From: Nitrospirota bacterium
GTDB taxonomy: Bacteria; Nitrospirota; UBA9217
NCBI GenBank assembly: GCA_963749655.1
Contig: CAVVOB010000029.1
Span: 25,169-89,168 of the forward strand
DNA: 64,000 bases
Direction: 5' to 3'
Part shown: positions 47,179-60,661 of the stretch, in pieces
Layout: each line of letters opens with the position of its first letter
How positions within the stretch are numbered: the first letter of the stretch is position 1
Notes under the pieces: generated by a model
Told to the model about the DNA's origin: nothing
The model's input: the letters and a program-made list of their open reading frames with translations, nothing else
The model's database searches: none
Made by a program: the position numbers and the translations under genes

Positions 47179-50100
47179 ATGCAGCTCAAGACCCTCGAAA
47201 TGATCGGTTTCAAATCCTTTTCCGATAAAACGATAGTCACCTTTCAGCCCGGAGTCACAGCCATCGTAGGACCGAACGGCTGCGGCAAAAGCAACATCTC
47301 GGATGCGATCCGGTGGGTTCTCGGGGAACAGAGCGCCAAGCACCTCCGCGGCGACAAAATGGAAGACGTCATTTTCAACGGCAGCGAGAACCGCAAACCG
47401 CTCGGCATGGCGGAGGTGACCCTGCGGCTGAACAACAAGGACGGCAATCTTTCCTCTGAGTTCGGGCACTATGAAGAGCTCGAGATCACGCGCAGACTCT
47501 ACCGGTCCGGAGAAAGCGAATATCTCATCAACAAGATCCCCTGCCGGCTGAAGGACATCAGGGATCTCATGATGGACGCCGGCGTCGGCGCCCGGATCCA
47601 TGCCATCATCGAGCAGGAAAAAGTCGATACTATCCTTTCCTCCAAACCCCAGGACCGGCGCTTCCTGTTCGAAGAAGTGGCCGGCGTGATGAAATACAAG
47701 GCGCGCCGCCAGGAGGCCCTGTCCAAACTCGAGTCCACCCAGCAGAACCAGCTCCGCGTGAACGACATCATCATCGAGGTGAAGCGCCAGGTGAATTCCC
47801 TCGATCGTCAGGCCAAAAAGGCCGAACGGTATCAGAAACTGCGCGGTGAGATGAAAGACTTCGATTTCCGCCTGGCGTCGGTGGAATATTCGAACCTGGG
47901 CCTTGAATGGACCGCTACGACGGAAGATTTCAAGAAAGCGGAAAACGAGGTCACGGAGCTCCACGCGACCCTCGGCAGGGTCGAAGCGGCCATCGAGGAA
48001 ACGCGCGTCGACGCCCTTGCCTCCGAGCAGGAGCTTTCCGCGCTGCGGCTCAAGATCCACGAGACCGAGGCGGCGCTCAGCAGATCGGAACACCGTGTCG
48101 AAATGTCCAAAAGCCAGATAACGTCGCTCACTGAACAGCGCGGTCGCGATCTTGCCGACATCGAATTTCTGAGGCAGGAGCTGTCCAGGGTCGGTGAGCA
48201 GAAAACGGTGCATGAGGAGGAAGCGGTCACCCTCGTCCGCTCCATCGAGGAGCAGAACGCCATTCTGGCCGGCCGGTCGGAGCTTCTGGAGTCCCTGGCC
48301 CGCGCGCTCAGGGAAAAAGAAGCTTCTCTTGAAGAGACCCGGGCCGGGATACTGAACGCCATGACGGCGACGGCGAACGAAAAGACGAAAATAGCAAACC
48401 TGCAGACACGCATCACACAGATCGACGAGCAGGGCGCCAAGGCGGAGAAGGACAAACAGGACCTGACCGAAAAGCTCCGGGAGCTCGCCGGCCTGCTCGC
48501 GACTCGGGAGCGTGAGCTCGAGGAGATCGTCGCCCGGAAGAACGCGGCCCAGGAAGAGCGTGCCCAGGTTGCCGAGCGCCTGGAAGCCGCCGTAGCCAGA
48601 AAAAAATCGGTCGAGACGGCGCTCAATGAAACGAAAAACAGGCTGGCCGGACAGAACTCGCGCCTCCGCTCCCTGATCGAACTCGAGCAAAGCTTGGAAG
48701 GCTACCAGAAGGGAGTGCGGACCGTCATGTCGGCCCGCAAGGAAGCCTCGGCGAGTGAGCGCCTCGGCACCATTCACGGCATCGTTGCGGACATGATCGA
48801 AACCGATCCTCAGTACGAGGTGGCCATCGAGGCCGTACTCGGTGACCGTCTGCAGTACGTGGTCGTCGACTCCCAGAATGATTCGCTGAAGGCCATCGAG
48901 TATCTCAAGGCCGGAAGCGGCGGCAGAAGCACGTTCGTCCCGAAAGCAACGCGGGAGATCAAGTCCGAACCCTTCGTGAAGAACGGCCACGCCGGCGTCA
49001 TCGGATCGGCGCTTGGCATCGTGCGGTACGACGAACGCTACGGCAGCGTTGCCCAGTATCTGCTGAACGACGTGGTTGTCGTGGACACCATGGACACGGC
49101 CCTCTACCTCTGGGGCAAAAACGGCATGCATAAGACCATTGTCACTCTTACGGGAGAGATCGTGGACCCCTGGGGCGCCGTTACCGGCGGCACCGTGGAA
49201 GCTGCGGGCGCGGGCATGCTCACGAAACGGCGGGAGATCAAGGATCTGGAGCATGAGATCGCGACCTTGACCGTGAATGCCGCGAAGCTGGACAACGAGC
49301 TCCAGTCCGTTGACTCTGCCATCGACTCGGACAAAAAGATCGAGGCCGATCTGGCCCAGCAGATCCACAGCACCGACCTTGAATTCGTAAACAGGGAAAA
49401 GGATCGGCTCGGCGTTCTCGATGAGATCGGCCGGGGTGAGGAACGCATCAGGGCGATCGACGCGGAAGCAGCTGGGCTGTCTGCTCAGCGGCAGGAGCTG
49501 AGCGGTGAAGTTGCGCGCGCGGAGGAAGTCCTCCGCGGCCTCGAGGCCGGTCATGCAGACGCGCAGGCCAGCGCCGAGCTGATCCAGACGGAGTTGTCGC
49601 TCCGGAAGGAGGAGCTGGAGGCCGCGCGTGCCGCAATCACCGAGATCAGGATGGCGGTCGCCGCCCTCGGGGAAAAGCAGGCCGCCGCGGTCCGGAACCT
49701 CGAAGCGCTCAGAAAATCGGAAACGGAACTGTCCGACCGGCTCGTTCGGCGGGAGGCTGAAATCAGCGGGATCGAAACCAAATTGGCCGAACTTGCCTCG
49801 TCCATCACCGAAGCCGAGGCCGAGATCAAGGGCCATATCGAGATCCTGGAGTCCGAACGCCGGGTCCTCCTGGAGAAGCAGGAAGTCCACGGGGAAAAGA
49901 CCCGCGCGCTCCAGGCTTCCGAAGAGCAGGCCCGTCAGGCGCGCCACGACATCGAAGCGGCGCAGAAGCGTCTTTCCTCTTCCGAGGTCAAACGCACCGA
50001 ACTACGCATGAAGATCGAACATCTGAAGGACAGGATCTGGAGCACCTATCACACGGAACTCGAAACCGTGGTCCGGGAGCTCGGCCAGTTCGAGATCAAT

Positions 50101-50766
50101 ATGGACGAGTCGCGGATGCGCCTCGATGAACTGCGCGAGAAGATCGACCAGATGGGCCCGATCAACGTGGATGCGCTCCAGGAGTACAACGAGCTGAAGG
50201 AGCGCTATGACCTCCTCTCGGCGCAGCAGAACGACATCAATGAATCCATCAACAACCTCAAGGCCACGATCGCCAAGCTCGACGGCGAGACCAACGAGCT
50301 CTTTACCGAGGCGTTCAATTCGATCCAGGAAAAATTCAAGGAGGTTTTCTCCCTGCTTTTCGAGGGCGGCAAGGCCGAGCTCGTGCTGCTGGACCCGACA
50401 AACATTCTTGAATCAGGCATCGAGATCATCGCCCAGCCGCGCGGCAAGAAGTTCCAGAGCATCACGCTCCTGTCGGGCGGAGAGCGGGCACTCACGGCCA
50501 TTGCGCTCCTGTTCTCGGCGTTCCTCGTGAAGCCGAGCCCCTTCTGCATGCTCGACGAAGTCGACGCGCCGCTCGACGAAGCCAACGTCACGCGGTTCAC
50601 CCGCCTGATCCGCGAAATGAGCAGCCGTTCCCAGTTCATCACGATCACGCACAACAAGCGGACCATGGAAATGGCGGACGCGCTCTACGGTATCACCATG
50701 GAAGAGCCCGGCTGCTCGCGCGTGATCTCGGCCCGGCTGCGGGACCAGACGCCGGCAATGGCGTAG
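47179..50766 (+). CDS. smc: Chromosome segregation protein SMC
   Basis: 'GFKSF', 'GPNGCGKSN', hinge 'GRSTF.P', 'LSGGE', 'LDEVDAPLD'. Confidence 0.97.
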
Positions 50767-50826: not shown

Positions 50827-51024
50827 ATTGAAACCCTTTTTTTTTCACTAGGTACCGGACCGGTCGCACCGACGCTCTAACTGGTCAACTCTAGCTCTTC
50901 TGCCGGATGACGTCGAAAAACGGTACCGGATCAGCATGCAATAAGTTGCACTTTCCCTCTTCCCAGGCAGTTCTGTCTGTGATATTCTCACGTCATGCTT
51001 TCACCACCCACGGCAGGCAGAAAA

Positions 51025-51990
51025 ATGAGGGTTGCATCCCTTCTTCTCTTTATTCTTGTCTCCACTGCTCTCTCCCCCCGGCTCGCTTTAGCTGAAGAAC
51101 CGGCCGGGTCTCCCGCTGAACAACAGGCATCCGCGTCTTCGCCGAATGAATACCGTCTTTTCAAAATCGTCTTTGAGCCGGACGCCTACTACACCGACGT
51201 CGACCTTATCATTGCTCTCACCAAAGCTCCCATCCCCAGTCTCGGGGAGATGTCGGAACAGGAGATCTACGGCACCCTCCTGACGCGCGCAGCAGTCCTG
51301 CCGCAGTTCCTCGTTCTCGAGGCCAGCGTCAATCCCCTTCCGTGGTTCGGAACGTATTTGAAAAAGAACGAGCGCGATTTTTACGACCGGGCCCAGGTAT
51401 CGGGCAGCTTCAACTGGGTCAAGGCGGTTACGACCGGATTCGAGGAGCCCTATGCCTTCTCCGTGCTGGCGGGCAATGTCGCAAATTTCTATCTTCCCGG
51501 AAGCGCGGACACGAAGGGGCTGGGATACAGCGGCTACCTGTTCAGCACGGGAAACTACTACATCAAGGACAATGAGCTGGTCCCGGACACGTGGAGGGAG
51601 TTCGAATGGAAGATGAAGGGGGATCGCAAGTCGCCGGTTAAAAAATTGAGCTGGAGCTTTCGTATCGGCGCCAAACTGCACAGCAACCCCAATATCACGG
51701 AAACCATTTACCTGACGGTCCGGAGGAGCAAGATCGATTATAAACCGGAGGGATCGTCGCTGTTCAACAACAGCGGATTCGAATATACCTATGACATGGA
51801 CCGGCGCACCTTCAGCGCGATCAGGCACTACTTCTTCGTGGACAAGAAATGGCCGCTGACGGACCGCCGCATGGCGTTATCTCTTGCCCTGGGTTTTGTG
51901 TGGGAATCAGCAAGGAAGTATACGGGAGAGCTTGCCACGGGACGGGGGAACGATCTGCAGGTCCTGCTGCGTCCGAACATCGAATTTTAA
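51025..51990 (+). CDS. Hypothetical exported/outer-membrane protein
   Basis: Signal peptide; beta-strand-rich; C-terminal Phe ('RPNIEF'). Confidence 0.7.
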   Translation: MRVASLLLFILVSTALSPRLALAEEPAGSPAEQQASASSPNEYRLFKIVFEPDAYYTDVDLIIALTKAPIPSLGEMSEQEIYGTLLTRAAVLPQFLVLEASVNPLPWFGTYLKKNERDFYDRAQVSGSFNWVKAVTTGFEEPYAFSVLAGNVANFYLPGSADTKGLGYSGYLFSTGNYYIKDNELVPDTWREFEWKMKGDRKSPVKKLSWSFRIGAKLHSNPNITETIYLTVRRSKIDYKPEGSSLFNNSGFEYTYDMDRRTFSAIRHYFFVDKKWPLTDRRMALSLALGFVWESARKYTGELATGRGNDLQVLLRPNIEF

Positions 51991-53150
51991 GGAGATACCG
52001 GAGTTTCTGCCGCCGATATCGGCTGGATGATCTGTTCCCGGGTGATCGAAAGGGGCGCTGCAGTTCCAATCTCATAATTTCCCGAGGCGAAGCCCAGGGA
52101 TTCGAGGCGTGACCGCACCTCCTCTTCCTTGTCGTCCGCGCAAAGGATCGCCCGGACCATACCGCCCTGACTGACGACAAGGACCTTGCCGCCGTTCTCA
52201 CCCTTTTCCGGACGCGCCTCTGACCACTGCCGCAGGCTGTCCTGCAGTGTTTTGTCCAGGGTCGTCCCGATCGTCATGCCGCTGCGGTACACCGCGTGTT
52301 CGCCATAGAGCTCGACGAGGATCTTCTCCAGCACATGCTGATAGCAGGGCCTGCCGTTCGCATTGCCCAGGGCGCCGAAATCGAACCTGCCGCTGCCCTC
52401 TTTCCGCAGCATGACAGACGCTGCGAGGGCCGCTCCATACTCGTCCTGGGAGATGAGCTTTGCCTGCTGCATGTTGAAGAGCACTTGTTCCTGCCGGTGC
52501 CGGGCCTTGTCCATCCGTTTGAAGGGATTATAGTATCGCGGATTGGGAAGCATGCCCGCCAGAAGGGCCGACTCGGCAACGGACAGGTCCGCGGCATGCT
52601 TGTCCAGATAATACCGGCCGGCAGCTTCGATGCCGTAGATATTCTCGCCCCATTCGACTTCGTTCAGGTAGATCTCGAGGATCTTCCTTTTCGAGAGTAT
52701 CTCCTCGGCCTTCGTGGCCAGCACATACTCGCGCACTTTGCGCGTTATGGTCTTCTCCTTGGACAACAGCACGTTCTTGATCATCTGCTGCGTGATCGTG
52801 CTGCCGCCCCGCGCGAACCTGCGCTTCTGGACATCAAGCACGAGCGCGTCCCAGGTGGCCTTGTAGTTGACTCCCCGGTGCGCAAAAAAAGTGTCGTCCT
52901 CGGCCGTCACGACCGCCTCGACCACGACATCAGAAAGCGCCGAGATAGGCGTCCAGATCCGGAACTTGCGGTCATAGTAATGAGTAAGGATGGTCCCGTC
53001 CTTGTCGAGCACTTCCGCGGCCGCGGCCGGCCGGTAGTGTTTGAGTACGGAAACATCGGGCAGTTTGGACAGGGCCAGGAAAAACCAGATCACTACGGCA
53101 AGGACTGAAACGGCTAGAACACCGAGGCCGATGAATAACGTTTTTTTCAT
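51987..53150 (-). CDS. Peptidoglycan transglycosylase (GT51) protein
   Basis: 'EDDTFF.H.G', 'GGSTITQQ', 'RKVRE', 'KILEIYLN'. Confidence 0.9.
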   Translation of the reverse strand: MKKTLFIGLGVLAVSVLAVVIWFFLALSKLPDVSVLKHYRPAAAAEVLDKDGTILTHYYDRKFRIWTPISALSDVVVEAVVTAEDDTFFAHRGVNYKATWDALVLDVQKRRFARGGSTITQQMIKNVLLSKEKTITRKVREYVLATKAEEILSKRKILEIYLNEVEWGENIYGIEAAGRYYLDKHAADLSVAESALLAGMLPNPRYYNPFKRMDKARHRQEQVLFNMQQAKLISQDEYGAALAASVMLRKEGSGRFDFGALGNANGRPCYQHVLEKILVELYGEHAVYRSGMTIGTTLDKTLQDSLRQWSEARPEKGENGGKVLVVSQGGMVRAILCADDKEEEVRSRLESLGFASGNYEIGTAAPLSITREQIIQPISAAETPVSP

Positions 53151-53159
53151 GGTGCGATG

Positions 53160-53318
53160 CTATTTCCGCCCTTCAGGGGGATTGTCGTCCTGCGTCTCAT
53201 CCCTTCTACAGAAGGAACCGGGGGCGTCCCCTCAGCCGAAACCCTGTCTTTTCCCGAACCGGGAAATGACGAGCACCGCGAGGGCGATGATGATTATGGT
53301 TGTTGTCATGTCGGACAT
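53160..53318 (-). CDS. Candidate 52-aa membrane micro-selenoprotein (in-frame UGA at 53232-53234)
   Basis: AGGGAG SD; MSDMTTTIIIIALAVLVISRFGKRQGFG-U-GDAPGSFCRRDETQDDNPPEGRK*; SECIS-like hairpin downstream of the UGA. Confidence 0.55.
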
Positions 53319-53392
53319 GGAAAACTCCCTAAGGCCTGATTGGAAAGGCCGGCTGCCGGCTTCTTCGCGCGAGGCCGTGCGAATCACCGGGA

Positions 53393-53953
53393 TTATTTCG
53401 ACGCTATGAACTCCTGAAGGGTCCTGACCGCGGCAGGGTCGGTCCAGTTCCCGGGACCGATGACCTTGAACCGGACGGTCCCCTGCCGGTCAAGAATATA
53501 GGTTTCGGGAAATTTAAAGGTCCCGTAAAGAGCTGCAGTGGACCGGTCAGGATCGAGCAGCACCGGCAGGTTGATGCCCTTCTTCTGCATAAAGGGGGCG
53601 ACCGCTCCTGCGCCTCCGTCGTCCACGCTCACCAACAGCATCTCGAAATCGCCGCTGCCGAGTTCTCCGGGGAGCTTCGCAAGGTTTGGAATTTCCTCCA
53701 CGCAGGGAGGGCACCAGGTGGCCCAGAAATGGACCATCACGACCTTGCCCCGAAGGTCCGCAAGACGAATCTGCCTGCCGTCGAGCGAGGACAATCGGAA
53801 ATCTGGCGCTTGGTCGCCGGTTTGAATGACCTTGGTGTGGCCTGCTTTTCTGCCTTTGGCGATAAAACCCGCTGCCGCAACAGCCACGATGAGAACAATG
53901 ACGACGAGGAATATAATCTGCTTCGTCTTGCCGCTGTTTGCTGCTTCTGCCAT
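53393..53953 (-). CDS. TlpA/ResA-like thiol-disulfide oxidoreductase
   Basis: N-terminal TM; 'FWATWCPPC', 'FPETY'. Confidence 0.92.
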   Translation of the reverse strand: MAEAANSGKTKQIIFLVVIVLIVAVAAAGFIAKGRKAGHTKVIQTGDQAPDFRLSSLDGRQIRLADLRGKVVMVHFWATWCPPCVEEIPNLAKLPGELGSGDFEMLLVSVDDGGAGAVAPFMQKKGINLPVLLDPDRSTAALYGTFKFPETYILDRQGTVRFKVIGPGNWTDPAAVRTLQEFIASK

Positions 53954-54289
53954 GGCACCTCATATTCAAGTTGATCGATATATACAATTACACGTTGACG
54001 GTAATGCGGTCGGTATTATACGATTTATCGAAAGGCGTATCAAGAGGAAATCATGAGTGCCTGCGGTGCCCCCGTGACATGGGGAAAGGCACCGACGCTT
54101 CTCAGGTTGTATTAAACGGGCCGGGAAAGCCCTCACGACGGTAGAATCCGGATTGAGAACCGCTCGATTCACGAGAGACGACGTAAAAAACTCACCCGGT
54201 CGCTTTATCAACGTCCGCACTGTCCATCAATGATCGGCCTGCGTCCTTGCGATGGCAGTATCGTCTTTCTCCCGTGTCTGACAGCGACC

Positions 54290-54661
54290 CTACCACTGAA
54301 AACGTCCAAGGACCGAAATGCCGAACAGAAACATCGTTATCCAAACGGCCGTGTCCACGACGATAGCCTCGACATCGTGACGCGCGAATCTTTGTTCGCC
54401 CTCCCATGCCGGGACTTTCGGCGGCTTCAACGCCATGATCGTGGAAGCGACAAGAAGCCCAACAAAAAGGCCTATCATCAGGAACGGCATCCAGGCCGGC
54501 ACCGCACCGAAGTCTTTCGCAGCGACAAACCAGAGGCCGAAGAAAAGGACGATGCTGTACTCGGTGAATCGGTCTCCTGCCTTTTCCTGGAGACGCGCTC
54601 CGGACAGGGACAGGATGACCATTGACAGGGTCAGGGTAAAAAGCAAAATCAGGAGTATCAT
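54290..54661 (-). CDS. Hypothetical membrane protein
   Basis: GGAGG SD; four hydrophobic segments. Confidence 0.55.
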   Translation of the reverse strand: MILLILLFTLTLSMVILSLSGARLQEKAGDRFTEYSIVLFFGLWFVAAKDFGAVPAWMPFLMIGLFVGLLVASTIMALKPPKVPAWEGEQRFARHDVEAIVVDTAVWITMFLFGISVLGRFQW

Positions 54662-54842
54662 AGACAAACCTCCGGTAATTGCTACTTTTGGACACAGAAT
54701 CACCGGCTTTGCGATGATCGTATCTGTTATAGTAATTATAACACCCGTTCCCGTTTGCGCAGTTTTGCTTCAACCTTCCCCTGCGTTTCGCTGCATTTTT
54801 ACTTTTGAAAAATCAAGGCTCTCTGCTATAATAATCATCGTC

Positions 54843-56665
54843 ATGATACTCGAGATCAAACTCCACGGAAAAGCCAACGACAAGCTCGACTATTACGTCA
54901 CCATTACGGGTGCCGACCTGAGCAGCAGGTACTGCTACGAGTCGCTTCCCGAGGGCGACCGCTTCTTTTCCGGCAGGAACGAGTTCATCATCTCCCCCGA
55001 CGGCATCAGCTATACCGGCACGGGCGGCAACCTCTGCGAGTACATGTTCGGCGTGGACCTGCCGCTCAAGGATCTGCTGCGGAAGGACGTTTCGAACCGC
55101 ATGGTGATGTTCGGCGCCTTCTACGACAAGACCGACAACATCACGTTCACCAACAGCACCATCGGCAGGGAGTCCTTCGACCACGTCTTCCTGACCGGCA
55201 ACGCCGTCTCCAACTACTATTTCTTCATCCACACTTCGCAGCGGACGGAGATCAGGGACATCCAGCGCGACATCCTGAAGTACATCGGCAAACAGCTCAA
55301 GCGAAGCACGACGGTGGGCGCTGCCGACGATTCGCGCCTCTGCCGCGAGATCTTCGACACCCTGGGCGATGAGAAGTCGCTGGTGTTCCTCTTCCGCCTG
55401 CTCAACCGGCATAACCAGGAATACTACAACACCTTCAATAAATTTTACGCAGAGCAGAAATCGCTCACGGTGCAGGCGCAGAAGAAGCTGGATGAGCTGG
55501 CAAAGAAGTACAACATCATCCCCTACCAGCAGGAACGCATCAAGATCGACGGCATGTACAAGCAGTCCGAGAACAAGAAAATCGTGGATGAATACAAGGA
55601 CATCCTCATCTCCGTTTCTGAAAAAGGCGAGGTGAGCCCCTCGGAACTGGCGAAGCTGTCCCGCCTGCGGACGCTTGCTCTGCGCCTCAACATCCCCCAC
55701 AACCTCTTCGACACCCTCGACGAGCTTCTCCTGAAGGACACAAGCATCGTCGAAGTCGAGGAGCCCGACTACGTCCGGGACACGCGGGCCATCTTCGAAG
55801 GCCTCTTCTTCGAGGCCGACAGGATCAAGGGCCATATCTCGCAGGAGGACCTCGTCAAGCTCCTCATGGCCAAGCAGAAGTCGACGCTCGTCCGGGACCA
55901 GGCCTTCGAGGGCCTGCTCCTCGACACGGTCCGCGCCTGCGACGAGCACGCCCGCGACAACGAACGACATGTCCGTGCTGGAATCCATGAGCTCCATCCT
56001 CACCTATTTCGACCGGTACGACAGCACGGCGACGACGATCAACAACCTCGCCTTCATGGAGAAATCCACGCTCAGCGAAGACAATATCAGGAGCATCTTC
56101 GGCAACAAGGCGGTCTTCGACCAGATCAGTTCCGACCTGTTCCGCGCAGCTGTTCATCGATGCCCTGCGGGACAACCGCTACCTGACCCGGTACGGCCGC
56201 AAGAAGGTCGACACCCTGTTCCTCGGCCTGCAGCAGATCAAAACGGGAGACACTACGTACCGGGACCTCGCGGCCTCCATCTCCGGGATCAACAACGACG
56301 ACACGATGTACACGTCCATTCACCGCTACATCAAGGAACGGTTCAGGAGCATCTACGCAGAATTGAACTCCAAGGAGGACCAGGAGATCTTCATCCAGGA
56401 CCTCAACCGGGAGATCCAGTCCAAAGGCATCGTGCAGGGACCCGTTCCGCACAGCGTGTTCGAGGAGATCATTCTCGACATCAGGAAGGAATCCTTTTAC
56501 CTCAACAACCTTCTGCCGCACATTATCGTGTCGCGCGATCACCGGGTGCGCGAGGATTTCCTGATGAACAGCGGGCTCGACCGCTTCTACGTTGAGGAAC
56601 TGGAAAAAGACTACTTCGATATGAACCAGATCGAAATGAACATCCTCGAAGAGATCCGGAAATAA
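54843..56665 (+). CDS. Conserved ~600-aa protein, TIGR04442-like (2 frameshifts)
   Basis: 'EIKLHG', 'EYMFGVD.PLKDL', 'YQQERIKID.MY', 'FL.NSGLDRFYVEELE'; frames 54843-55960, 55969-56150 and onward to 56665; upstream TTGAAA-16-TATAAT. Confidence 0.7.
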
Positions 56666-56764: not shown

Positions 56765-56863
56765 ATTTTGTTTAACGGATGCATCTGTTCCGGTCGGCAG
56801 GATACCCGGCGGCTCGCCGCGGCGGCAGCATTTTTTTCAAGAAAGGAACGATCAGAACCTACC

Positions 56864-58051
56864 GTGTTCAAGACCCTGGACCGATACATATTCCGTGAAA
56901 TGGTGCCGCCGTTCTTCATCAGCACGGCGGCGCTTCTCCTGGTGCTGGTGCTCCAGCAGCTTTTCCGGCTGACGGACATCATCGTGTCGAAGGGCGCCAC
57001 CATTGCGTCTACGGTGACGGTGATCATCTACGTTCTTCCGGGATTTCTGGTCATCACCATCCCCATGGCCCTTGTCGTCGCGGCGCTTACGGCCTTCAGC
57101 CAGATGAGCGCTGACTCCGAGGTGACCGCCATGAAGGCCTCGCGCATCAGTGTCTACCGGATGATCCGTCCGGTCTTTTTTTTCGCCGTACTCGCGTTTC
57201 TCCTCACGGCCTTCACCTCGCTCTACCTCGTGCCCCTGTCGAACGTGGCGCTCAAATCCTACCTTTTCAACATGATCAAATCACGGGCGATGGTCGGCCT
57301 CGAGCCGGGCGTCTTCAGCAGCACCTTCGACGGCATGGTCATCTATGTCGACAAACTCGATGAACGAAATAACATGGAGGGAGTGTTTATATCCGACGAA
57401 CGCTCGGTCAAGGACCCGTACATCATCGCTGCCAAGCGCGGAAAACTCACTGCCGACCCCGAGGCGCTTTCCGTCACACTGGCCCTGCAGGATGGTTCCA
57501 TCCACACGCAGCCCCGGGACGATGAGTCCTATACCCTGATGGGCTTCAATACGGCCAGAATATACCTTGATATCAGAAATTCACTCGCTTCCCAGGGAGA
57601 CTGGGGAAAGAACTACGAGGACATGTCCACCGGAGAGCTCATCAAGTACATCCGCCAAGCGCGCAGCGAGGGGAAGCCCGTCTACCTCCAAGAAACGGAG
57701 CTGCACAAGCGGCTGTCGATCCCCTTCGCCTGTCTCATCTTCGGCCTCATCGGCGCGCCCCTCGGAATACGCCAGACGCGCTCGGGGAAATCTGCGGGCA
57801 TTGCAATCGCCCTTTTCGTATTCCTCGTCTATTACATCGTTCTGGCGACAGCGACCAATCTCGCGCACACGGGGACTGTTCCCGCCCTGAGGGCTTACTG
57901 GATTCCGAACGGCCTCCTCGTCGCGGCAGCCTGCCTGTTTGTTTATAAAAGAGGCCATGAAGTGGATTTCATGATCGGAAACATGTTCTCGGGCCTGTAC
58001 TACCGGGCGAAAGCGCGAATCGTGCAGGCATTCAAACGGCGGAAGTTTTAA
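56864..58051 (+). CDS. lptF: LPS export ABC permease LptF
   Basis: 'LDRYIFRE', 'MSADSEVTAMKAS', 'HKRLSIPFAC..F..IG.PLG'. Confidence 0.9.
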   Translation: MFKTLDRYIFREMVPPFFISTAALLLVLVLQQLFRLTDIIVSKGATIASTVTVIIYVLPGFLVITIPMALVVAALTAFSQMSADSEVTAMKASRISVYRMIRPVFFFAVLAFLLTAFTSLYLVPLSNVALKSYLFNMIKSRAMVGLEPGVFSSTFDGMVIYVDKLDERNNMEGVFISDERSVKDPYIIAAKRGKLTADPEALSVTLALQDGSIHTQPRDDESYTLMGFNTARIYLDIRNSLASQGDWGKNYEDMSTGELIKYIRQARSEGKPVYLQETELHKRLSIPFACLIFGLIGAPLGIRQTRSGKSAGIAIALFVFLVYYIVLATATNLAHTGTVPALRAYWIPNGLLVAAACLFVYKRGHEVDFMIGNMFSGLYYRAKARIVQAFKRRKF

Positions 58052-58058
58052 GGAGCAC

Positions 58059-59144
58059 ATGAAGCTTTTAAGCAGACATATTCTTCGTGAATTCATGTCC
58101 CTCTTCTTCGGGGTGCTGCTGGTCATCCTCGTCGTGTACCTCTGCATCGAGTTTCTGCAAAAGGCCGACAGGCTGATCAAGTTCCATGCCACTCTCTCCC
58201 AGGTCGTCCGGTACTTTTTGTATATCATTCCCGGCATGATCTCCATGTCCCTGCCCATGGCCGCCCTGATCGCCTCGCTCCTTTCTCTCGGCAATCTGTC
58301 GCGGCACAACGAAATCATCGCCATGCGCGCGAGCGGCGTAAGCCTGACCCAGATCGTCCTGCCGATGATCCTCGGCGGACTGCTGATCTCGGCCTTCGGA
58401 TTCTTCAATAATGAGTATCTCATGCCGGAATACGCGTCGAAAGCGAACTACATCCGCAAGATCGAGATCGAAAAAAAGCAGCAGCGGGTCGTGTTCCAGC
58501 AGCGCAAGCTGTGGCTGCGGGGCCCCGACAACAGCATCGCGAACATCGAGCTGGTTTCTCCGAACCGCAATGAGATGATCGGCCTCAACATCTACAAGCT
58601 GAATCCCGACTTCTCCATCCGTGAGCGGACCAAGGCCGCCAGTCTGCTCTGGGAAAACGGCACCTGGCGCCTCCAGCACAGCCGCACGTATTCGACCACG
58701 GGCGATCTGGTGACCTCCCGCTCGTCCGACGGGGAGGAGTACAACATTGTCGAAAGTCCCGATGACCTTGGCATGATCGTGAAGAACTCAGAAGAGATGA
58801 GCTTTTCAGAGCTCTGGGAATACATCAAGCGGCTCAGGACCGGCGGATACAAATCCGTCACCTATGAAGTGGACCTGTACAACAAGATATCCTTTCCCCT
58901 TTCGAGCCTGCTCATGGTGGTGATCTCGATCCCCTTTTCGTTCCATAAGGTGCGGAGCGGCGGAGCGGCAAAAGGTTTTGCTTTCGCCCTGGTGATCGCT
59001 TTTGCTTACTGGACGCTGCTGAGCGTCGGTACGTCGCTGGGCCATTCCGGCTTCCTCGCCCCCATGGCCGCAGCATGGTTCGCCAACTGCACGTTCGGCG
59101 TTGCGGCGATCATCGTGCTGTTCCGCATGCAGCGCGCGGTGTGA
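58059..59144 (+). CDS. lptG: LPS export ABC permease LptG
   Basis: 'LSRHNEIIAMRASG'; follows lptF. Confidence 0.9.
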   Translation: MKLLSRHILREFMSLFFGVLLVILVVYLCIEFLQKADRLIKFHATLSQVVRYFLYIIPGMISMSLPMAALIASLLSLGNLSRHNEIIAMRASGVSLTQIVLPMILGGLLISAFGFFNNEYLMPEYASKANYIRKIEIEKKQQRVVFQQRKLWLRGPDNSIANIELVSPNRNEMIGLNIYKLNPDFSIRERTKAASLLWENGTWRLQHSRTYSTTGDLVTSRSSDGEEYNIVESPDDLGMIVKNSEEMSFSELWEYIKRLRTGGYKSVTYEVDLYNKISFPLSSLLMVVISIPFSFHKVRSGGAAKGFAFALVIAFAYWTLLSVGTSLGHSGFLAPMAAAWFANCTFGVAAIIVLFRMQRAV

Positions 59145-60019: not shown

Positions 60020-60046
60020 AGTGTAATCGGAGGGATGGTTCATACC

Positions 60047-60661
60047 ATGCTGCTGGTGGGATTGACAGGCGGGATCGCAAGCGGAAAAAGCCTCGTGGCA
60101 AGGGTGTTCAGGGACCTGGGCGCGCACCTGATCGATGCCGACCGCATCGTTCACGAGCTTCTGGAGCCGGAGCAGCAGGGGTGGGAGGAGGTCGTGCGGC
60201 ATTTCGGAGGAGAGATCCAGCTGCCCGACGGCCGCATTGACCGCCGAAAACTGGGCGAGATCGTCTTCAACGATCAGGAAAAGAGGCAGTGGCTCAACGG
60301 ATGCCTGCATCCCAAGGTCTTTGACGTGTTCCTGTCGCAGACACGGCATATGCGGAACCGCCAGCAGGACACGATCATCGTGCTCGATGCCGCACTCCTC
60401 ATTGAAACGGGATACCACCAGAAAATGGACTGCACCATCGTTGTCTACGCCGACCTCGAACAGCAGATCGAGCGCCTCTGCAGGCGCGACAGCTTCACCC
60501 GGGAGCAGGCCCTCGCGAGAATCGGGAGCCAGATGCCCCTTTCGGAAAAACGCGCCTGCGCAGATTACGTGATCGACAACACCGGGACCCGGGAACAGAC
60601 CGAACAGCAGGCGCGGTCGATCTTCGAATGCCTGAAGCAGGAGGCACAGAAGACACCATGA
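60047..60661 (+). CDS. coaE: Dephospho-CoA kinase
   Basis: 'GLTGGIASGKS', 'IDAD', 'ADYVIDN.G'. Confidence 0.95.
   Translation: MLLVGLTGGIASGKSLVARVFRDLGAHLIDADRIVHELLEPEQQGWEEVVRHFGGEIQLPDGRIDRRKLGEIVFNDQEKRQWLNGCLHPKVFDVFLSQTRHMRNRQQDTIIVLDAALLIETGYHQKMDCTIVVYADLEQQIERLCRRDSFTREQALARIGSQMPLSEKRACADYVIDNTGTREQTEQQARSIFECLKQEAQKTP

Follow-up and report, generated by a model that had tools for sequence, protein, structure and literature searches.

An in-frame UGA and a conserved, covarying hairpin point to a candidate family of membrane micro-selenoproteins in one class of Nitrospirota

Introduction

The locus studied here raises the question of whether a very short gene, whose reading frame is interrupted by a UGA, encodes a new membrane selenoprotein. 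It lies at positions 53160..53318, minus strand, of a 64,000-nucleotide (nt) stretch of DNA from a Nitrospirota bacterium (assembly GCA_963749655.1, contig CAVVOB010000029.1, positions 25,169 to 89,168), the whole of which we call the window, and it is placed between a gene for a TlpA-like thioredoxin-fold protein (tlpA) and a gene for a peptidoglycan glycosyltransferase. An original prediction, made from the letters of the window alone, had proposed a hidden micro-gene in which the UGA is read as selenocysteine (Sec, one-letter symbol U) with the help of a hairpin resembling the bacterial selenocysteine insertion sequence (SECIS). The comparisons reported below support this proposal, with the qualification that a single homologue carrying cysteine (Cys) in place of Sec was found. 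They indicate that the locus very probably belongs to a real, new and lineage-restricted family of single-pass membrane micro-selenoproteins of about 50 residues, and we hold the decoding of the UGA at codon 29 (UGA29) as Sec with equally good confidence. Sec insertion, topology, a redox pair of U with Cys and any partner are what we infer from these comparisons, and a specific function is put forward at much lower confidence.

Results

Layout of the micro-gene

The elements named in the original prediction were all located, as described, on the minus strand. An AGGGAG resembling a Shine-Dalgarno (SD) motif (53330-53325) is followed, as read directly, by a 6-nt spacer (TTTTCC) and an ATG (53318-53316), and the frame opened by this ATG passes an in-frame TGA, the proposed Sec codon at residue 29 (53232..53234, read from 53234 to 53232), before reaching a TAG (53162-53160). 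With the TGA read as U, translation gives a product of 52 residues, MSDMTTTIIIIALAVLVISRFGKRQGFG-U-GDAPGSFCRRDETQDDNPPEGRK, in which MSDMTTTIIIIALAVLVISRFGKRQGFG is the part before the TGA and GDAPGSFCRRDETQDDNPPEGRK the same-frame continuation to the TAG. Downstream of the TGA, the minimum-energy fold predicts a SECIS-like hairpin (53199..53218) with a stem of 8 base pairs (bp), formed by the arms GUUCCUUC (53218-53211) and GAAGGGAU (53206-53199) around the loop UGUA (53210-53207); the loop begins 21 nt after the UGA and has G at its second position. The first three loop positions are at the same time the UGU codon of Cys37 (53208..53210), read directly, and Sec29 and Cys37 together make up a U-x7-C spacing. 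Only 9 nt (53159-53151) separate the TAG from the ATG of the glycosyltransferase gene (53150).

A TGA-bearing family confined to one lineage

A search for conserved blocks in the DNA of 60 relatives returned, as the best-conserved block, one that starts at the TGA and spans the hairpin. We then searched 401 Nitrospirota genomes with a protein profile that treats the UGA as a residue and obtained 52 matches (E ≤ 3.8e-6) in 51 genomes, every one with exactly one in-frame TGA. All of them fall within a single taxonomic family (50 of its 63 genomes plus the genome of the window, and 17 of 19 genera), which in the genome set searched constitutes the entire order and class, 64 genomes in all; the remaining 338 Nitrospirota genomes gave just five matches, with E values of 0.001-0.009. 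The exact hairpin was present in 16 public records, all of which match the family profile: 15 are metagenome-assembled genomes (MAGs) of uncultured Nitrospirota, Nitrospirae or Nitrospiraceae and one (L086) is a MAG labelled 'Betaproteobacteria', probably a matter of labelling or binning. A DNA pattern that permitted TGA, TGC or TGT at the Sec codon retrieved 26 stretches from metagenomes, of which 25 are family members, all 25 with TGA, while the single TGT match is an unrelated longer open reading frame (ORF). Homologues with TGA at this position, conserved on both of its sides, are found in other Sec-using organisms (52 in 51 genomes and 25 from metagenomes). Among the 52 members an SD-like purine motif occurs at -4 to -18 in 41, and the internal codon is TGA in 52/52, whereas these genes end in different stops (TAG 28, TAA 18, TGA 6).

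Conservation and covariation of the hairpin

The hairpin is kept in 52/52 members, with its loop beginning 20-25 nt past the UGA. Its stem measures 4-9 bp, and 25 members have 8 bp. Thirty-eight members have the loop UGUA, nine GUA, two CUGUGA and one each AGGA, GUACG and GGAC, so that a G stands within the first two positions in 50/52; the two exceptions are the 6-nt loop CUGUGA, with G at position 3. In the bacterial SECIS (bSECIS) consensus quoted by a 2026 review, the apical loop is small, has a G among its first two positions and is located 16-37 nt from the UGA (PMC13188914). The hairpin and its distance thus agree with this consensus in all 52 members and the loop in 50, as the original prediction had claimed for the geometry in the window.

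Pairing was assessed in a MAFFT alignment of the 52 distinct sequences, using the 8-bp helix originally proposed and, as a control, the same helix with its 3' partners slid by 1-3 columns. Paired cells amounted to 88.0%, compared to 49.5-62.5% with slid partners, five of the eight stem pairs have changed on both sides (23 cells), and neither the covariation score nor the percentage paired was reached by any of 500 shuffles. The inner five pairs were also predicted by RNAalifold, as an independent method, and four of these five show compensatory changes. On the 3' arm, several compensations make use of synonymous arginine codons, CCC-GUC-UGU-AGA-CGG (P-V-C-R-R), for example, standing for CCC-UUC-UGU-AGA-AGG (P-F-C-R-R), which points to selection on the hairpin RNA itself. 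An Rfam scan of 52900-53600 at E ≤ 10 gave two chance-level matches and no known RNA family.

Compared to SECIS decoding of the fdhF/selD type, the micro-gene shares an in-frame UGA followed by a small stem-loop inside the coding region, a G with U or G after it in the first two loop positions (50/52), and the presence of selA, selB, selC and selD in the genome. In contrast, its stem is short (4-9 bp), without a conserved bulged U or an extended lower helix, its loop doubles as a Cys codon, and binding of SelB here is putative.

Coding evolution past the UGA

An open frame past the UGA was set aside as weak evidence, since frame +1 is open in all 52 members too (frame +2 is closed by the UAG of the loop), and substitutions were therefore counted by codon position. 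For the counts, sequences of equal length were joined in a minimum spanning tree, of which the edges with at most 30% divergence were used (18 for the region after the TGA, 22 for the region before); sequences of unique length drop out. After the TGA, differences at codon positions 1, 2 and 3 numbered 52, 49 and 110 (chi-square p = 5e-8), and the tail beyond the hairpin, taken alone, gave 31, 28 and 63 (p = 1e-4); the part before the TGA, with the transmembrane (TM) helix, gave 92, 60 and 167 (p = 5e-13). Codons of the tail with a single change were synonymous or non-synonymous in a ratio of 27/35 in frame 0, while the two alternative frames gave 6/50 and 9/46 (Fisher p = 7e-5 and 0.002). Within the family, the stretch from UGA to hairpin differs in length three times, by +3, +6 and +6 nt. 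The frame-0 periodicity, the synonymous excess and these length differences indicate, at the level of sequence, that the region past the UGA evolves as protein-coding in the frame of the micro-gene. Conservation that stopped at the UGA, or a hairpin that was not conserved, would have spoken against the original prediction; what we found is a coding signature that continues after the UGA and a hairpin that is both kept and covarying.

Sec machinery of the organism and its class

The genome of the window (39 contigs, 86.6% complete) contains a tRNA-Sec, a selB (367.5 bits against a cut-off of 242) and an adjoining selA (611.1 bits, above cut-off), the last two on contig C39. Its selD is itself a selenoprotein gene with an in-frame TGA (SSCAG-U-AAKF; C21:1685-2611, minus strand), and four genes of the formate dehydrogenase (FdhA) type carry an in-frame TGA at the expected U-H position (C14:63639-66686, minus; C19:80390-83529, plus; C30:56928-57662, plus; C13:194386-195123, minus). 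SECIS candidates of selD and fdhA in this genome also have GU in their loops. Since tRNA-Sec, selB, selA, a Sec-containing selD and TGA-bearing fdhA genes are present, the organism decodes UGA as Sec, and selA, selB, selC and selD, proposed at the outset as a check, are all accounted for. The search returned the FdhA-type copy on C19 as several pieces, with a second TGA further on.

Across the class, selB was detected in 53/64 genomes and in 31/32 of those of high quality. Micro-gene and selB occur together in 44 of the 64 genomes, the micro-gene without selB in 7, selB without the micro-gene in 9 and neither in 4. We considered this co-occurrence as possible evidence and discarded it as not discriminating, nearly the whole class having selB. 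In four genomes, each from a different genus (G015, G018, G023 and G028), selB and the micro-gene are only about 2.4-2.6 kb apart and on opposite strands.

A single Cys-form and truncated gene calls

Searching the profile against 1.84 billion representative proteins returned eight matches. One, P0002, is a full-length protein of 52 residues in which Cys takes the place of Sec (E = 7e-16); two were taken as unrelated, P0003 being repetitive (62 residues) and P0005 a protein of 1172 residues with a short match only; the other five are stumps that end ...G-W-G at the UGA. Among 5.8 billion clustered proteins P0002 was again the only full-length match, accompanied by two stumps, one of them named 'hypothetical protein'. 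The stumps P0004 and P0006-P0011 all end ...GWG at the UGA, in agreement with the suspicion that standard annotation misses this gene: what the databases hold are its N-terminal parts.

P0002 is a singleton ENA cluster, encoded on two contigs. ESM Atlas contains it letter for letter, and used as a query there it gave a best score of 0.83, to unnamed clusters, and no lead. A metagenome DNA search based on P0002 produced 594 pattern matches, none of which was confirmed, and the Cys-form was not found in the 401 Nitrospirota genomes. Judged from protein sequence, a Sec/Cys pair exists, since P0002 is full length with Cys at the Sec position; the Cys-form appears extremely rare, and public gene calls truncate the gene. 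The search for Cys-containing homologues suggested with the original prediction thus succeeded once and not beyond that.

Protein features and predicted topology

Family members are 49-59 residues long, most commonly 51-52. Behind an N-terminal M-S-D comes a single helix of strong hydrophobicity (median Kyte-Doolittle value 2.68 over 17 residues), the net charge being 0 or -1 before the helix in 49/52 and +1 to +3 in the segment between helix and Sec in 48/52. The motif G-x-G-U is present in 44/52 and a G follows U directly in 41/52. Sec stands 21-29 residues from the C-terminus, and about half of the part past it consists of K, R, D, E or H. By the positive-inside rule, the positively charged flank of a membrane helix faces the cytoplasm. 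Given this rule and the charge distribution, the Sec-bearing tail is most likely cytoplasmic, in an N-out/C-in arrangement predicted from sequence. TlpA-type thioredoxin domains are periplasmic, and a direct partnership of the tail with TlpA, as suggested originally, would need the opposite topology because the tail is placed in the cytoplasm by its charges; the suggestion is therefore not supported.

A Cys lies seven residues past U in 47/52 members and eight past in 3/52, and is absent there in 2/52. The two Cys-less members, L096 with R at this place and L109 with G there and Cys residues further on, still keep the hairpin with a G-containing loop. The spacing of the U-x7-C redox pair that had been proposed is thus present. 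The redox role, in contrast, is confounded, as the UGU codon of Cys37 is also the SECIS loop, so that conservation of this residue cannot be assigned cleanly to the protein. P0002, the Cys-form, keeps the downstream Cys, which is a single observation. In L064 and L067 a Cys stands just before Sec (G-W-C-U-G), a C-U dyad like that of several known selenoproteins.

Comparison with known families

NCBIfam release 20.0 contained no family that recurs among 53 members at E ≤ 10. In Pfam only FeoB_associated (PF12669) recurred, in 7/53 at E ≤ 1 with a best E value of 0.034, below threshold, and the protein of the window scored 13.3 bits against a gathering threshold of 27 bits. PF12669, a FeoB-associated Cys-rich membrane protein, shares with the micro-gene product a length of about 50 residues, an N-terminal TM helix, basic residues and a Gly/Cys stretch, but the micro-gene family lacks the Cys cluster, stands in a different context and has Sec in place of Cys. 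The UXX-star family (NF041211) shares the G-x-G-U motif seen in 44/52 members; its name implies an end two residues past U, whereas the micro-gene family runs on for 21-29 residues, and it gave no recurring match among the 53 members at E ≤ 10.

None of the selenoprotein families in Pfam, SELENOK and SELENOS included, was matched by the 53 members at E ≤ 1. SELENOK and SELENOS are eukaryotic single-pass selenoproteins of the endoplasmic reticulum membrane with Sec at the C-terminal end. They are nevertheless the nearest analogues in architecture, sharing an N-terminal TM helix without signal peptide and a cytoplasm-facing, probably disordered Sec-bearing tail rich in Gly/Pro and charges, in SELENOS with a Cys nearby. 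In contrast, Sec of the micro-gene product is membrane-proximal (23 residues from the C-terminus in the window), the gene is bacterial with its SECIS within the coding region, and the protein has half the size or less, so that the likeness is architectural and implies no homology.

Table 1 of the 2026 review lists 119 prokaryotic selenoprotein families (PMC13188914); no small single-pass membrane family is among them, and the accessible text contains neither 'transmembrane' nor 'membrane protein'. The deep-Sep pipeline, as described in the accessible part of its paper, may drop selenoproteins that have no Cys homologues, and all known ones seem to have them (PMC12013277). The BSepDB paper, in its accessible part, catalogues known families only. 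Literature searches on Nitrospirota and on new bacterial and small membrane selenoproteins returned no description of the family, although an unnamed candidate may stand in the supplementary lists of BSepDB and of deep-Sep.

Neighbouring genes and loss of the micro-gene

The upstream gene (53393..53953, minus strand) encodes a TlpA-like membrane-anchored thioredoxin-fold protein with a CPPC motif (Pfam AhpC-TSA, E = 1.1e-28; Redoxin, 8.9e-25), and the downstream gene (51987..53150, minus strand) a peptidoglycan glycosyltransferase (Pfam Transgly, E = 6.4e-58). A consensus scan, as a pattern match only, found a promoter-like TTGATA-17-TATAAT (11/12) upstream of tlpA (54015..54043, minus strand), a possible start of a three-gene operon, and a pattern scan of the minus strand found no terminator-like site between tlpA, the micro-gene and the glycosyltransferase gene. 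In the family, tlpA is immediately upstream on the same strand in 47/52 loci and the glycosyltransferase gene immediately downstream in 46/52, with both neighbours in 46/52. From stop to ATG the distance is exactly 9 nt in 24/52 loci and does not exceed about 20 nt in most of the rest, and a putative purine-rich SD of the glycosyltransferase gene lies inside the last codons of the micro-ORF.

A paralogous 'MSEQT' subgroup (L050, L053, L060, L089 and L099), with the motif ...FGMG-U-G..PDPFCRRD, is located apart from tlpA and the glycosyltransferase gene and still has the UGA, the hairpin and the charged tail. These five paralogues adjoin small uncharacterised membrane ORFs, in L053 and L089 a predicted membrane ORF of 142 residues that lies downstream; the N-terminal part of L099 looks disrupted, and a single genome bears both types of micro-gene (L061 and L089).

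Four complete or near-complete genomes without the micro-gene retain tlpA beside the glycosyltransferase gene. In two loci of the same genus (L153 and L154) the spacer of 225-250 nt just before the glycosyltransferase ATG (about locus position 1400-1500 in gene orientation) contains a decayed 3' half of the hairpin and an 'AAATAG + 9 nt + ATG' junction, and looks, from its sequence, like a pseudogenised micro-selenoprotein gene; the spacers of L155 and L156 are shorter, with no recognisable remnants. Because genomes lacking the gene hold selB, the pair of neighbours and, in two cases, remnants, the micro-gene can be lost while selB is kept.

Elsewhere in the window, the long ORFs that flank the operon (54435-56186, plus; 54813-56003, minus; 50995-51990, plus) had no Pfam match at E ≤ 0.001, the first of them (583 residues) overlapping the second (396 residues) on the opposite strand. 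Other nearby genes encode SMC (47179-50766), LptF/LptG (56768-59144) and CoaE (60035-60661).

Discussion

The results can be accommodated in the following scheme. A ribosome would start at the ATG at 53318 and synthesize a short acidic N-terminus, a single TM helix and a linker that is basic and rich in Gly (R-F-N-R-G-x-G-W-G). Once UGA29 is reached, SelB with Sec-tRNA(Sec), tethered to the hairpin 21 nt downstream, would insert Sec instead of allowing termination, and translation would run on for 23 more codons, through G-x-x-P-G-P/S-F-C-R-R-D and the highly charged tail, to end 9 nt before the start of the glycosyltransferase. The selenol would then be located a few residues from the cytoplasmic face of the membrane, followed by a Pro-Gly turn and, eight residues after Sec, by the Cys, and a selenenylsulfide between Sec29 and Cys37 could form, with possible cycling of the two residues. 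The product would be made from the same transcript as the TlpA-type thiol-disulfide oxidoreductase and the peptidoglycan glycosyltransferase. We propose that it may serve as a membrane-tethered redox or chalcogen-binding (selenol/thiol) module at the cytoplasmic face, co-expressed with these two proteins.

Several observations weigh against this interpretation. The 96-nt fold of the window is no stabler than shuffled sequences (z = 0.80; 161/200 fold at least as well), and a SECIS-like hairpin follows 202/5099 (about 4%) of the TGA-ending ORFs of the genome, counted stop-to-stop from 150 codons upwards under the same loose hairpin criteria, 134 of the 202 being also open for at least 20 codons past the TGA. 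Since so many long ORFs ending in TGA have it, this geometry in one sequence is weak evidence, and its significance comes from the comparison with the 52 + 25 homologues. These, in turn, are mutually related, so that counts over the 52 sequences are not independent and those based on shuffles overstate independence. Frame 0 is open for 21-29 codons past the UGA in 52/52, but frame +1 is open there for at least 25 codons in 52/52 as well, and conservation of F-C-R-R-D and its Cys is confounded with the hairpin encoded by the same bases. The classical evidence from Cys homologues amounts to one Cys-form cluster of two contigs, known from protein alone, where deep-Sep, by the accessible part of its paper, asks for at least two Cys homologues from different organisms among the top ten matches (PMC12013277). 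Seven genomes carry the micro-gene without a selB at E ≤ 1e-60, all of them incomplete MAGs (63-91% complete), and the gene is absent from 13/64 genomes, nine of which have selB, and is thus dispensable. A look-up of sequencing runs listed no RNA run that contains the locus, and DNA runs with small shares only.

Three other explanations were weighed against the same evidence. The micro-ORF could be a plain membrane micropeptide of 28 residues that ends at the UGA, with the hairpin as another cis element (for mRNA stability or for translational control of the glycosyltransferase); the frame beyond would then be open simply because the sequence is purine-rich. This is the very peptide that gene callers predict, as in the stumps P0004 and P0006-P0011, the open frame +1 in 52/52 shows that such a frame is cheap in this composition, and SECIS-like hairpins after 4% of the long TGA-ending ORFs make one hairpin unremarkable. 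An ordinary stop, however, would be expected to drift as the terminal stops of these genes have done (28/18/6), whereas the internal TGA is invariant in 52/52 and 25/25; the third-position and synonymous excess past the UGA is confined to frame 0, the length differences between UGA and hairpin are +3, +6 and +6 nt, the Cys-form P0002 reads straight through, and the hairpin sits at SECIS distance with a G in its loop, all of which leaves the plain micropeptide very unlikely. A near-cognate tRNA (Trp or Cys) could instead read through the UGA, with the hairpin as stimulus and no Sec involved. This would account for a translated tail, given that downstream RNA structures can stimulate stop-codon read-through and that the inserted residue is not distinguishable from sequence data. 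We regard it as extremely unlikely, as the class is Sec-using (selB in 53/64 genomes and 31/32 of high quality), the hairpin conforms to bSECIS in both distance and loop, and the sole sense variant has Cys, the usual replacement of Sec, and not Trp.

The third explanation is compatible with Sec insertion and concerns its purpose: the micro-ORF could be a leader gated by selenium or SelB, in which only ribosomes inserting Sec at UGA29 would couple into the glycosyltransferase, its synthesis would follow selenium or SelB status and the peptide would be secondary. The spacing of the genes fits coupling: in 24/52 loci exactly 9 nt lie between the stop and the next ATG, most others have no more than about 20 nt, the glycosyltransferase gene is the next one downstream in 46/52, and its putative SD falls inside the last codons of the micro-ORF. 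Set against this, the five 'MSEQT' paralogues keep UGA, hairpin and tail without a glycosyltransferase, genomes that lost the micro-gene retain the tlpA-glycosyltransferase pair, the tail is under constraint at the protein level (44% synonymous single changes in frame 0 compared to 11-16% in other frames), and TM helix, G-x-G-U-G motif and charged tail are conserved as protein features. As the main role of the locus, a gated leader is decidedly improbable in our judgement, although a regulatory leader role may coexist with a functional peptide. That both hold at once in a strong form, an obligate-Sec membrane module with essentially no natural Cys-form together with a selenium gate on cell-wall synthesis, seems to us unlikely. 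If this dual reading were true, coupling would tie the output of the glycosyltransferase in this Nitrospirota class to selenium or SelB status.

If the preferred reading of a membrane micro-selenoprotein family is true, the catalogue of approximately 119 selenoprotein families gains one that is related to none of them and is of unusual make-up, with about 52 residues, a membrane anchor, Sec at the membrane interface and a SECIS loop that is also a Cys codon. It would also reveal a systematic blind spot, since gene callers end the gene at the UGA and often discard the resulting stump of 28 codons, and selenoprotein finders need several Cys homologues where one is available here; for these reasons micro-selenoproteins may be under-counted in general. 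For this uncultured lineage, the conserved operon would set selenium beside genes of thiol-disulfide exchange and peptidoglycan synthesis.

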